From a bacterium (GTDB taxonomy: Bacteria; JAAXHH01), in NCBI GenBank assembly GCA_965248395.1, contig OZ252103.1, forward strand, positions 2,602,882 to 2,666,881: 64,000 nucleotides of DNA, written 5' to 3'. Under the pieces are notes generated by a model. It was given only the letters and a program-made list of their open reading frames with translations, ran no database searches and was not told where the DNA came from. The translations under genes were made by a program, and so were the position numbers. Positions 35,548-37,927 of the stretch are shown here, piece after piece. Positions within the stretch are counted from its first letter, which is position 1, and every line of letters begins with the position of its first letter.

Positions 35548-36729
35548 CTAGGCGGCGCCGCAGTGCTGCGATCGGGCCGGCGCCCGGTACTGCACGCGGT
35601 GATCGGGCGTCTCTAAGCGAATGCCGCCCTTCTGTTTCGACGTAAGACAGTGATCGAGGATTCCGCAAACGGTCAGTGTCCGTTCCACCGGTATGGGAGA
35701 AACACCGGTCTCGAACATCTCGTCGATCCTGGCTACAAGGCAGGCGGAATAGGTAACCGGTGGAGTGGGCGGAAGGAAGAACTGGGTGGACTGGGGATTG
35801 GGTTCGTCCTTCAGTCGGGCTGCGAAACAGTAGTCTCCGATCGCGCCGTTCAGCATGAGCAGCGTGGTTTTAAGCCCGTCCATATGTTCGATAAAGTACG
35901 CGGCCGGCTCCTCGACGAGACGATACAGCTCGCCCGTTCCCAACAGGTCCTGGGTACGGCCGTCCTCTTCGGTTAACCCCTTGGGACTGTCGCAGCGTGA
36001 CAACGCCGATTCCAGCAGTTCCTTCGAATAGCGTCCCTGTTCGCCCGCTTCCCAGACCTGGTCACCCACGATCATCTGCACGGCCCTGACGCCTGTCTCC
36101 CCGCCCCTGCGGCGCTCGATCATGCACTGCATGGCCTCGAGGGCGTGGTAATCCATCGCGTCCGAGCCGCCGACGCCCACCATCAACGCTTCCTGGATAT
36201 CGCAGTCAAGGGGCAGTTCCAGGTCGGGAAGCCGCCAGGTAACCGGCAGGCTCGAACCGGCGAGCACGGGAAAGCCAAGCCGCCTGGAATCGGCCACCAT
36301 CTCCAGACCCTTGTCGAAACTATAGGAAAGATTCTTGTCGTTGTAGACCGGCACGGAACGGCCGTCCTGCTCGAACACCTCGACGCAGGCCTTGAACATG
36401 TCGTAGCGCGGGTAGCGTTTCTGGCCCTTTTCGTTGTCAGGATAGTCACCGTGCTCGCAGATGATCAGGACGCCGTGTACCGCCAGGGAATCCCCGCCGC
36501 AGCGCAGCGCTTCGGCGATGGTTGGATAGACCTCGAAACCGAACTCGCGGGCGCGGTCGGTGCTTTGGTCGCCTTCAGGCCGCTGATCGACGTACAGCGA
36601 CACGACCTCCACATCAGGCCTGTGCCACCGGCCTGACCGCGGATATCCCACGAGAAAACGATCCGCGAAATGTTGCGTGTGGGAGAGGTACGTGTAGATG
36701 GAACTGATGACGGCGAGCCGTTTCGGCAT
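35548..36729 (-). CDS. Hypothetical protein, tandem paralog A (unknown family; possibly a distant Rossmann/Gfo-Idh-MocA-like fold)
   Basis: 393 aa; about 45% identical by eye to the adjacent 36734-37927 product (shared blocks VSLYVDQ, NEKGQ-RYPRY, GRSVPV-NDK-LS, AGSSLPVTWR, ERRRGGE-GV). Confidence 0.55.
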   Translation of the reverse strand: MPKRLAVISSIYTYLSHTQHFADRFLVGYPRSGRWHRPDVEVVSLYVDQRPEGDQSTDRAREFGFEVYPTIAEALRCGGDSLAVHGVLIICEHGDYPDNEKGQKRYPRYDMFKACVEVFEQDGRSVPVYNDKNLSYSFDKGLEMVADSRRLGFPVLAGSSLPVTWRLPDLELPLDCDIQEALMVGVGGSDAMDYHALEAMQCMIERRRGGETGVRAVQMIVGDQVWEAGEQGRYSKELLESALSRCDSPKGLTEEDGRTQDLLGTGELYRLVEEPAAYFIEHMDGLKTTLLMLNGAIGDYCFAARLKDEPNPQSTQFFLPPTPPVTYSACLVARIDEMFETGVSPIPVERTLTVCGILDHCLTSKQKGGIRLETPDHRVQYRAPARSQHCGAA

Positions 36730-36733
36730 GGTT

Positions 36734-37927
36734 TCAATTTCTCCAGAACGTGGATTTCTCGGGCGCCGGGTAGGTGACGTCGAGATGGGGCGTTTCCAGG
36801 TGGACCTGTCCTAAGTGCAGACTGTCGACACCGGCCGCGGTCAGTCCTGACGTCAGCAGCGTCCGCTCGACGGGGTAGGCGGCCTGGCCGGTGAGGAACA
36901 TCTGCTCCACGTTGTTGACCTGCGGCGAGAAGAAGTTGGCCAGCGAGGTGCGTGCCGGCGGCATGGGGAGATACATCTGCGTCGACAGCGGATCGCTACG
37001 TCCTGCGAGACGCGCCGCGAAGTTGAAGTCCTCCACCAGACCGCTGAATAGAATCATGGTGCACTTGACCCCGTCACGGTGTTCGTAGGTGTAGGCCACG
37101 GGATCTTCCACGAGGCGCTTCATCTCGTTTATGGTCGGAAAGATGTTGTTGAACCCGTCGCGGGACGGTTTCAAAGTATGACTCCGGCAAAGCGCCGTTT
37201 CGAAGAGTTCGCGGGACCATACTTTGTCGTGGTAGGCCTCCCAGAAGGCCTCACCCCGACGGGCGTGCAGCCAGGAGACGCCTACCTCGCCGCCCCGGCG
37301 CCGCTCGACCATGCACTGCAGGGTCTCCAGGCCGTGAAAGTCGTAGCTGTCGACTCCGCCGTAGCACACGCATACGGCCTCTTCCACCTCGGCGTTCAGC
37401 GGCATGTCGATGGACGGCGTCCGCCAGGTGACCGGGAGACTTGAACCGGCCATGAAGGCGAACCCCAGCCGCTGCGACGTATCGTACATCTCCCTGGCCC
37501 AGTCCCAGTTCCACGACAGGTGCTTGTCGTTGAATATGGGAACGGAACGACCGCTGTTTTCGAATACCTCCACGATCTCGCGGAACAATTCGTAACGCGG
37601 ATAAAGCCGCTGTCCCTTTTCGTTGGTTGGATATTCGCCGTGTTCTCCCACCAGGAGGACGCCATCCACCTGCAGCGAATCACCGCCCAGGGTGAGGGCT
37701 TTGGCAACCGTGGGGTAAATCTCCATCCGGGGAAACCGGGCGGCCCGGTCCCGGCTGAGATCTTTTTCCCGAACCTGGTCCACATACAGGGACACAAGGT
37801 CCATGGGCGGATAGTGGTGCCGGCCTGCCCAGCCGTAACCCTCCAGAAAACGGTCGACGATATGCTGGGCGTGCGCGTACGGATGATAGATCGTCGTAAT
37901 CGCCGCAATCTTCGGTCTGTTGGACAT
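36734..37927 (-). CDS. Hypothetical protein, tandem paralog B (unknown family)
   Basis: 397 aa; paralog of 35548-36729, 4 bp between the two genes. Confidence 0.55.
   Translation of the reverse strand: MSNRPKIAAITTIYHPYAHAQHIVDRFLEGYGWAGRHHYPPMDLVSLYVDQVREKDLSRDRAARFPRMEIYPTVAKALTLGGDSLQVDGVLLVGEHGEYPTNEKGQRLYPRYELFREIVEVFENSGRSVPIFNDKHLSWNWDWAREMYDTSQRLGFAFMAGSSLPVTWRTPSIDMPLNAEVEEAVCVCYGGVDSYDFHGLETLQCMVERRRGGEVGVSWLHARRGEAFWEAYHDKVWSRELFETALCRSHTLKPSRDGFNNIFPTINEMKRLVEDPVAYTYEHRDGVKCTMILFSGLVEDFNFAARLAGRSDPLSTQMYLPMPPARTSLANFFSPQVNNVEQMFLTGQAAYPVERTLLTSGLTAAGVDSLHLGQVHLETPHLDVTYPAPEKSTFWRN

Follow-up and report, generated by a model that had tools for sequence, protein, structure and literature searches.

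Two paired paralogs of a large unnamed family combine a predicted Gfo/Idh/MocA fold with the absence of a glycine-rich dinucleotide fingerprint

Proteins of the Gfo/Idh/MocA superfamily are recognized by a small set of hallmarks, namely a GxGxxG/A fingerprint between strand beta1 and helix 1, a GxxVxCEKP motif, and an active site made of a Lys, an Asp, a His (or Tyr), and a positively charged residue (PMC7535918, PMC11612644). In members that prefer nicotinamide adenine dinucleotide (NAD), an acidic residue ending beta2 binds the adenosine ribose (PMC11612644); a DxxxH/Y motif in the C-terminal domain provides the catalytic Asp and His/Tyr, to which the fourth, positively charged residue is added (PMC7535918). 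These proteins are usually homodimers or homotetramers, and the GFOD proteins have been described as the sole known cofactor-deficient members (PMC11612644). Here, we describe two adjacent genes, hereafter A and B, carried by a 64,000-nucleotide (nt) stretch of a bacterial contig (OZ252103.1, positions 2,602,882 to 2,666,881, assembly GCA_965248395.1, lineage JAAXHH01); this whole stretch is called the window below. The pair had been singled out from its letters alone, in what we refer to as the original prediction, as tandem duplicated genes of no nameable family, with a possible Gfo/Idh/MocA-like fold lacking the glycine-rich loop.

Fold, conserved residues, and pairing of A and B

The listing of open reading frames (ORFs) places A and B head to tail on the minus strand, A first, with a 4-nt spacer between them (Table 1), as originally described. 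Their products share 48% identity across 389 amino acids (aa; BLASTP, E 1e-128), close to the 45% or so first estimated, and the peptides quoted at the time (KIAAITTIY, VSLYVDQ, and VDGVLLVGEHGEYP) are all found in A. Neither protein matches any Pfam or NCBIfam model at E <= 1, A finds no match in a PDB sequence search at E <= 0.1, and no signal peptide is detected on the product of gene A.

The structure of A is more informative. Its AlphaFold2 model, built from a 20-sequence alignment, has a predicted local distance difference test score (pLDDT) of 87.4 and a predicted template modeling score (pTM) of 0.88, and displays the N-terminal Rossmann-type alpha/beta domain and the C-terminal alpha/beta domain with an open beta-sheet expected of the superfamily. 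When searched against the PDB with Foldseek, this model matches solely Gfo/Idh/MocA proteins (probability 1.0, E ~1e-11, 9-14% identity), among them biliverdin reductase, myo-inositol dehydrogenase, Gal80p (3bts), NAD-dependent sulfoquinovosidases, GFOR (1h6a, 1ofg), and GFOD1 (8y7p). Superfamily membership is, thus, clear from the predicted fold. At the sequence level, A and B have no match to PF01408, PF02894, or PF22725, while two canonical Gfo/Idh/MocA genes of the same window match these models readily and serve as internal controls placing A and B outside them. A profile built from 63 diverse members of the family does reach RgNanOx (6z3b) by sequence in hmmsearch (E 0.0015), with PVFnDKhLs aligned to VFCEKPIAL, which holds the EKP motif. 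A and B are a very remote, separate, and unnamed branch of the Gfo/Idh/MocA fold, beyond the reach of the Pfam models; the early guess on the fold was right, and so was the candidacy as an uncharacterized family, in that no annotated family claims these proteins by sequence even though their fold superfamily is clear.

Conservation was read from 72 A and 73 B sequences (the orthologues plus the window's own copies) and from the 63 diverse family members, and secondary structure was assigned from the AlphaFold2 model of A. Between beta1 (residues 6-11) and helix A (residues 19-29), A has a loop, T12-A18 (TIYHPYA), that is followed by H19 and holds no glycine at all, so that the absence of a GxGxxG loop stands as predicted. 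T12 (Ser in a minority of sequences), H19, Q21, H22, D25, and R26 are conserved at 99-100% in A and B orthologues, and the family-wide consensus that replaces GxGxxG reads T-x-Y-x3-S-H-A-D.

Other landmarks of the superfamily have recognizable counterparts. Position 50, at the end of beta2, is D/E in 72/72 A orthologues, D in 72/73 B orthologues, and D/E in 47/63 diverse members. The EKP motif is present in a variant form in which Lys is kept, Glu becomes Asp, and Pro becomes His: D134 and K135 never vary in A and B and are found in 58/63 and 60/63 diverse members, respectively, and K135 is the candidate catalytic and cofactor-binding lysine. The stretch GSSLPVTWR, invariant in A and B, ends with R169 (52/63 diverse members), which could be the fourth, positively charged residue of the active site. 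Further on, A and B show no variation at D193, D196, H198, E201, E208, R209, R210, and E214; among diverse members, H198 is found in 59/63 and D/E at position 193 in 57/63. The spacing GGvD193-x2-D196-x-H198 is unlike that of DxxxH, and the equivalence of this motif and of R169 to the canonical residues comes from motif order only.

Several invariants are specific to this family, namely E95-H96-G97, the Y99..Q106..Y109-P-R111 loop, H136, GSSLPVTWR, and ERRxGGExG. In the first two of these segments, E95, H96, G97, Y99, Q106, Y109, and R111 reach a conservation of 95% or more in both A and B, and largely keep it across the whole family; the loop that follows E95-H96-G97 is presumably an insertion relative to canonical Gfo/Idh/MocA proteins. 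Altogether, A and B share the same residue, at 95% conservation or more, in 87 columns, among them those of D134-K135, R169, D193, H198, and E201. Since the candidate active-site residues are identical in both paralogs, neither of them has the look of a dead subunit. In 20 other columns, A and B each have a fixed residue, but not the same one, such as H250 in A and D247 in B, or LANFFSP versus YSACL, where the C-terminal domain also has a 4-residue indel. As both active sites look intact, any asymmetry between A and B is probably to be sought in the interface or in the binding of the substrate.

The family is large. A has homologues in at least 8000 clusters at 90% identity; the best 120 of them, from Gemmatimonadota, Zixibacteria, Latescibacteria, Poribacteria, and Chloroflexota, match A over the full length at 73-92% identity and are all named “hypothetical”, with no precomputed Pfam domain. 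Homologues that are so abundant and full-length indicate that A and B are real genes. Searched exhaustively, a set of 1.84 billion representatives at 50% identity yielded 2680 relatives at E <= 1e-3, of which 518 reach E <= 1e-30. The phyletic distribution is accordingly wide: taking one genome per GTDB species, the family is present in at least 591 genomes, the closest listed being Latescibacterota metagenome-assembled genomes (91-94% identity), and the A/B pair occurs in at least six phyla, between which identity is about 70-80%. The closest matches make Latescibacterota the probable phylum of origin of the window. Its orthologue in Litorilinea is labeled hypothetical or uncharacterized in both RefSeq (WP_141611186.1) and UniProt (A0A540VCX0), and our literature searches for a glycine-less or heterodimeric Gfo/Idh/MocA protein returned nothing describing the A/B family. 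We are, thus, dealing with a very large and strongly conserved family that has neither a Pfam or NCBIfam model nor a functional name. It is frequent among Poribacteria, Latescibacterota, Caldilineaceae, Acidobacteriota, and Gemmatimonadota, all of them major heterotrophs of sponges, the sea, and soil. Assigning it a reaction would close a recurrent gap in the metabolic reconstructions of those uncultured groups. The system is also accessible to experiment, with two genes or one natural fusion, no partner genes, and a cultured host, Litorilinea aerophila.

The most telling feature of A and B is that they come together. We compared 84 loci from Latescibacterota, Poribacteria, Gemmatimonadota, Acidobacteriota, Chloroflexota, and Handelsmanbacteria. 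An A orthologue followed by a same-strand B orthologue is found by tblastn in 81 of them, and in 84/84 once the remaining three are re-examined, where B is cut by the contig end (L046 and L084) or frameshifted after a small inserted ORF (L014). The order is never reversed, and neither gene is found alone. Each lineage is 66-95% identical to the window copy, versus 43-52% between the A and B lineages. The duplication is ancient; to speak of tandem duplicated genes is correct as to the adjacency of the paralogs and understates the rest, given this fixed order and the in-frame fusions described below, and A and B are better seen as two subunits of one protein. A foreign ORF separates A from B in three Poribacteria loci (L014, 6882-7508; L016, 11030-11713; L035, 11216-13315); it encodes a 208-227 aa protein of unassigned function (MAFTDFKSIMQVQEAYEIKY...) in L014 and L016, and a 699 aa WD40-like protein in L035.

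In seven Chloroflexota loci, A and B form a single ORF of 810-836 aa, the two parts being joined by a Pro/Ala-rich linker of 25-40 residues. Full-length in-frame A-B fusions amount to at least 80 clusters, mostly from Caldilineaceae, with further cases in Bryobacteraceae (P0342) and in the planctomycete Fuerstiella (P0344); they, thus, recur in at least three phyla. The AlphaFold2 model of one of them (P0271, 822 aa, 30-sequence alignment) is a single compact body with a pLDDT of 89.2 and a pTM of 0.90, in which only the linker (residues 409-428) is disordered; a pTM of 0.90 for 822 residues indicates a confident docking of one half onto the other. A TARA marine contig likewise carries the two genes side by side (401 and 455 aa). 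The Fuerstiella fusion stands isolated among unrelated genes, and the A/B pair is often the sole gene unit on its strand. In the window, a GGAG located in the last codons of A, next to the 4-nt stop-start spacer, makes translational coupling of A and B probable. Rather than the usual homodimer or homotetramer, the genetic evidence favors an A-B heteromer; because of the 84/84 adjacency, the natural fusions, and the fusion model, A and B most likely form an obligate 1:1 heteromer, which would be a pseudo-symmetric version of the usual family dimer.

Proposed function and its alternatives

What surrounds the pair in other genomes is only loosely instructive. Recurrent neighbors resemble acid-sugar dehydratases, mannonate dehydratase, aldo-keto reductases (AKR), short-chain dehydrogenases/reductases, sulfatases, and sugar ABC transporters. 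Poribacteria have a recurrent order (sulfatase, Dabb-like, metallo-beta-lactamase, VOC, PhyH, A, B), and Latescibacterota have recurrent AKR, UxuA-like, CehA/McbA-type metallohydrolase, and EamA neighbors. Enolase-superfamily proteins, most like acid-sugar dehydratases, lie within 10 kb of the pair in 10 loci from several phyla; in Litorilinea, such an acid-sugar-dehydratase-like gene is directly downstream of B, in a neighborhood with LacI, a sugar ABC transporter, AP_endonuc_2, and Amidohydro_2. M19 dipeptidases are neighbors in L004, L057, L059, and L080. This context leans, loosely, towards the catabolism of sugars, sugar acids, or sulfated glycans. Clusters for oxidative (3-keto) glycoside cleavage combine the oxidoreductase with a xylose-isomerase-like lyase (AP_endonuc_2) and a DUF1080 protein, and neither of these is found beside A/B in the window; elsewhere, AP_endonuc_2 is near the pair in Litorilinea only, and DUF1080 is directly 3' of B in 2/84 loci (L049 and L078, one acidobacterial and one latescibacterial) and fused to the family domain only in distant relatives. 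A role in anti-phage defense was considered and rejected: PADLOC gives no match for A or B, and the defense or restriction genes near L003 and L004 do not recur at other loci.

The distant relatives, which are singletons in Planctomycetes-Verrucomicrobia-Chlamydiae-like genomes, offer other clues. Among 72 diverse full-length representatives, 64 score equally on A-specific and B-specific hidden Markov models and branch outside the duplication. Twin-arginine (Tat) N-terminal extensions (RRxFL) are found in 30/76 full-length distant relatives, and 23/76 have no extension; A and B have no twin-arginine extension and should be cytoplasmic. In some relatives, the family domain is part of a larger protein: a cytochrome c (CVQCH) lies directly N-terminal to it in P0168; a PQQ-type (pyrroloquinoline quinone) glucose/sorbosone dehydrogenase, followed by cytochrome c with three CxxCH motifs in all, precedes it in P0213; it is combined with a 3-keto-disaccharide hydrolase/DUF1080 domain in P0161 and P0188, and with an NAD-epimerase domain in P0232 and P0263. 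Such domain combinations suggest a redox chemistry acting on sugars, and proteins that would be folded and loaded with their cofactor before export. P0364 (700 aa) is an apparent fusion of the family domain to a Metallophos domain. The N-terminal 240-610 residues of P0169, P0259, P0215, and P0183 have no Pfam match or faint Reg_prop/SGL beta-propeller hints and may be further uncharacterized partner domains. We discarded P0355 (872 aa) as a Peptidase_M19 fusion, as it looks like a gene-call read-through into an M19 neighbor with its own signal peptide.

Our preferred interpretation, to which we give a probability of roughly 0.55, is that A and B form a cytoplasmic obligate heteromer from a divergent Gfo/Idh/MocA branch, acting as a sugar-type oxidoreductase with a non-canonically bound cofactor. 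The predicted fold, the conserved residues, the pairing, and the fusions are what the analyses show; from these, we infer the cofactor identity, the substrate class, and the heteromer geometry as follows. The heteromer would be a redox enzyme working on a sugar-like hydroxyl group, be it of a sugar, a glycoside, or a sugar acid. K135, H198, and D/E193 would act on the substrate hydroxyl as in inositol dehydrogenase, NanOx, and glycoside 3-dehydrogenases, and the hydride would be transferred to a dinucleotide, most likely NAD(P). The adenosine ribose of this dinucleotide would be held by D/E50 and its pyrophosphate by the Ser/Thr/His-rich T-x-Y-x3-S-H loop standing in for GxGxxG. Such a cofactor would probably be tightly bound and non-exchanging, as in GFOR or NanOx (for NanOx, PMC7535918); a tightly bound cofactor would not need an open glycine loop, and would also fit the Tat export of the relatives.

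Several observations weigh against this interpretation. With the glycine-rich fingerprint missing, one cannot take for granted that pyrophosphate is bound in the canonical way, and the loop between beta1 and helix A is presumably longer than in canonical members. Comparing the family profile with five canonical proteins from the window and the loci, hhalign gave no significant match and a mis-registered global alignment; its local alignment has a probability of only 3%, yet shows the expected register. Beyond K135, the residue equivalences are drawn from motif order and predicted secondary structure rather than from structural superposition, and the heteromer from genetics and modeling rather than from experimental or multimer-model contacts. 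There is no universal operon partner across the 84 loci, and no neighbor is conserved across phyla, so that the sugar assignment rests on loose context and on distant-relative fusions rather than on the A/B clade itself; the M19 dipeptidase and PhyH neighbors would suit non-sugar substrates too. A hydride-only NAD enzyme would not typically be fused directly to cytochrome c as P0168 is, which may signal another cofactor. One has to keep in mind, finally, that NAD(P) binding can be lost even with a near-canonical fingerprint, as in GFOD1 (PMC11612644).

The main alternative, which we regard as rather unlikely, keeps the same fold and the same heteromer and has the loop, together with H19, E95-H96, and H136, bind a cofactor other than a nicotinamide, such as a flavin, another phosphate-bearing molecule, or a metal ion. 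The chemistry would then be new to the superfamily, for example a one-electron transfer to cytochrome c in the exported relatives. This proposal draws on the full replacement of the fingerprint by a conserved Ser/Thr/His-rich loop, on the cytochrome c fused straight to the family domain, on the Tat signals of the distant relatives, and on the near-invariance across the family of H19, E95, H96, and H136, for which we know of no canonical Gfo/Idh/MocA counterpart. The T-x-Y-x3-S-H loop itself may resemble the phosphate-binding loops of flavodoxin-like proteins. What tips the balance towards NAD(P) is that the acidic residue ending beta2 and the set of K, H, D/E, and R typical of NAD(P)-dependent members have been kept, and that the structural neighbors all count as NAD(P) enzymes; Tat export and a periplasmic location are known for NADP-bound GFOR (1h6a) too.

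It is less likely, and in our view improbable, that A/B is a pseudoenzyme or binding protein devoid of cofactor, i.e., a ligand sensor, a scaffold, or a regulator comparable to human GFOD1/2 or yeast Gal80p. The missing fingerprint and the lack of conserved metabolic partner genes among the loci would suit such a role, GFOD1 and Gal80p are among the structural neighbors of A, and GFOD1 is documented as not binding NAD(P) (PMC11612644). However, both subunits keep the candidate catalytic residues without variation in six phyla, within the 87 identical columns, whereas the cofactor-contacting positions of GFOD1 hold small residues instead (PMC11612644); moreover, Tat export and fusions to catalytic or redox domains are seen in distant relatives, and A/B has no DNA-binding or signaling domain and no regulator-like context.

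That A and B are instead two independent enzymes, ordinary paralogs forming their own homodimers on differing substrates and adjacent through tandem duplication and shared regulation, agrees with the usual oligomers of the superfamily, with the complete candidate active site of each paralog, and with the singleton state of outgroup relatives, but is likewise less likely, with long odds against it, in view of an A-then-B adjacency that suffers no exception, of in-frame fusions in at least three phyla with a fusion model at pTM 0.90, of the 20 columns fixed differently in A and B (C-terminal indel included), and of the 4-nt stop-start spacer with its internal GGAG.

A broader proposal, which we consider possible and advance tentatively, is that A and B are founding members of a new enzyme family: an obligate heterodimer on this scaffold, with a non-NAD(P), sequestered, or absent cofactor, and a reaction new to the fold. 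If true, this would explain how a family present in so many species genomes has escaped every annotation system.

The locus and its neighbors

Pfam confirms the labels originally given to the neighbors of the pair, i.e., the B12-binding radical SAM gene, convergent with B, the YggX gene, and the SPFH and NfeD genes. Upstream of A, sucA, sucB, NfeD, and SPFH occupy 38008-43819 on the same strand, with a gap of 80 nt between SPFH and A. The link once suggested between the pair and B12-rSAM/YggX or SPFH/NfeD finds no support, and we reject a functional link to any of B12-rSAM, YggX, SPFH, NfeD, and sucAB, as this synteny is common only to the four closest relatives (L005-L008). Even there, it is partial: NfeD-sucB is kept in all four, SPFH in L005 and L008, and sucA in L005 and L007; YggX is beside B12-rSAM in L005 only, L006 and L008 having YggX without rSAM and L007 having rSAM without YggX.

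As listed, the YggX and B12-rSAM ORFs overlap by 53 nt, and the actual start of the latter is probably further downstream. The 59-nt gap (35489-35547) between the convergent stops of B and B12-rSAM holds a short GC hairpin, GAGCC-TTTCC-GGCTC, which may be a weak bidirectional terminator; it was not reported by the promoter and terminator scan of the locus, whose output was at background level and uninformative. The window also encodes two large paralogous ankyrin-repeat proteins, at 29454-31211 (+; 585 aa) and 32296-33600 (+; 434 aa), the Ank domain being confirmed by Pfam for the second; these genes cluster with similar genes in L005-L007. Ankyrin proteins of this eukaryote-like kind typically belong to symbionts of sponges and other hosts, which would fit the affinities of the window with Latescibacterota and with metagenome-assembled genomes from sponges.

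Table 1. Positions in the window of genes A and B, of their conserved segments (secondary structure from the model of A), and of other genes cited in the text.
Feature	Position	Strand	Description	Source
Gene A	36734..37927	minus	397 aa, ATG start; first subunit, predicted Gfo/Idh/MocA fold	ORF listing
Gene B	35548..36729	minus	393 aa, ATG start; second subunit, paralog of A	ORF listing, BLASTP
A/B junction	36727..36747	minus	GGAG in last A codons, 10 nt 5' of B ATG; TGA stop, 4-nt spacer, ATG	Sequence read directly
A residues 6-29, KIAAITTIYHPYAHAQHIVDRFLE	37841..37912	minus	beta1 (6-11), loop, helix A (19-29); glycine-free GxGxxG site	
B residues 4-27, RLAVISSIYTYLSHTQHFADRFLV	36649..36720	minus	B counterpart of the glycine-free beta1-helix A loop	
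A residues 43-51, DLVSLYVDQ	37775..37801	minus	beta2 (43-49) ending in acidic D50	
A residues 89-112, GVLLVGEHGEYPTNEKGQRLYPRY	37592..37663	minus	beta4 with family-specific E95-H96-G97, then conserved loop	
A residues 130-138, PIFNDKHLS	37514..37540	minus	EKP counterpart; K135, candidate catalytic/cofactor-binding Lys	
B residues 127-135, PVYNDKNLS	36325..36351	minus	EKP equivalent in B	
A residues 158-169, FMAGSSLPVTWR	37421..37456	minus	beta6 and R169, candidate fourth positively charged active-site residue	
A residues 188-216, CYGGVDSYDFHGLETLQCMVERRRGGEVG	37280..37366	minus	GG..D...H counterpart (D193, D196, H198, E201), then family-specific ERRxGGExG	
B residues 185-213, GVGGSDAMDYHALEAMQCMIERRRGGETG	36091..36177	minus	His motif (candidate catalytic) retained in B	
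Iron_traffic/YggX ORF	33610-34065	plus	5' of the B12-rSAM gene	Pfam
B12-binding radical SAM (B12-rSAM) gene	34013-35488	plus	Convergent with B	Pfam
SPFH gene	38008-38958	minus		Pfam
NfeD gene	39032-39463	minus		Pfam
Canonical Gfo/Idh/MocA gene	15393-16439	minus	Fingerprint GVVGCGWAG read; PF01408/PF02894/PF22725	Pfam
Canonical Gfo/Idh/MocA gene	56017-57048	plus	All three models (PF01408/PF02894/PF22725)	Pfam

Comparison with known systems

Among the closest described proteins are RgNanOx and E. coli YjhC, the 2,7-anhydro-Neu5Ac oxidoreductases (6z3b, 6z3c, 6o15), which have a canonical nucleotide site, are homodimers, and are about 13% identical to A/B. Compared with NanOx, A/B has no glycine fingerprint, has NDK in place of EKP, carries the extra EHG..YPxNEKGQxLYPRY loop, is an obligate pair by all genetic signs, and lacks a sialic-acid gene context. 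IolG, GenD2, DgpA, the glucoside/glucuronide 3-dehydrogenases, the SqgA-type enzymes (GH188), and the NAD-dependent glycosidases of GH109 all match the Pfam GFO_IDH_MocA models and possess GxGxxG/A, while A/B does neither. To our knowledge, none of these is an obligate heterodimer.

GFOR of Zymomonas, which is Tat-exported and periplasmic with a non-dissociable NADP, parallels the Tat-bearing distant relatives of A/B; it has a GxGxxA fingerprint and is a homotetramer, whereas the A/B clade is predicted to be cytoplasmic and heteromeric. GFOD1, GFOD2, and Gal80p show that the Gfo/Idh/MocA fold can be found with impaired or absent cofactor binding, and two of them, GFOD1 and Gal80p, are structural neighbors of A. 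In GFOD1, the GxSxxA fingerprint is kept, the cofactor-contacting side chains (sites 3-5) and the beta2 acidic residue have given way to small or clashing residues, and Arg94 occupies the place of the catalytic Lys (PMC11612644). A/B is the reverse of GFOD1: the fingerprint is lost, and the acidic residue (D/E50), the Lys (K135), the Arg (R169), the Asp/Glu (D/E193), and the His (H198) are conserved in both subunits, which is not what a GFOD1-type pseudoenzyme would look like. This is the first Gfo/Idh/MocA-fold lineage that we found to be without the dinucleotide fingerprint altogether and yet to keep the catalytic residues, and apparently also the first case in which this fold takes an obligate heteromeric, or fused pseudo-dimeric, form. 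It is the combination that is unusual: a lost fingerprint, a retained catalytic set, and an obligate heteromer or fusion.

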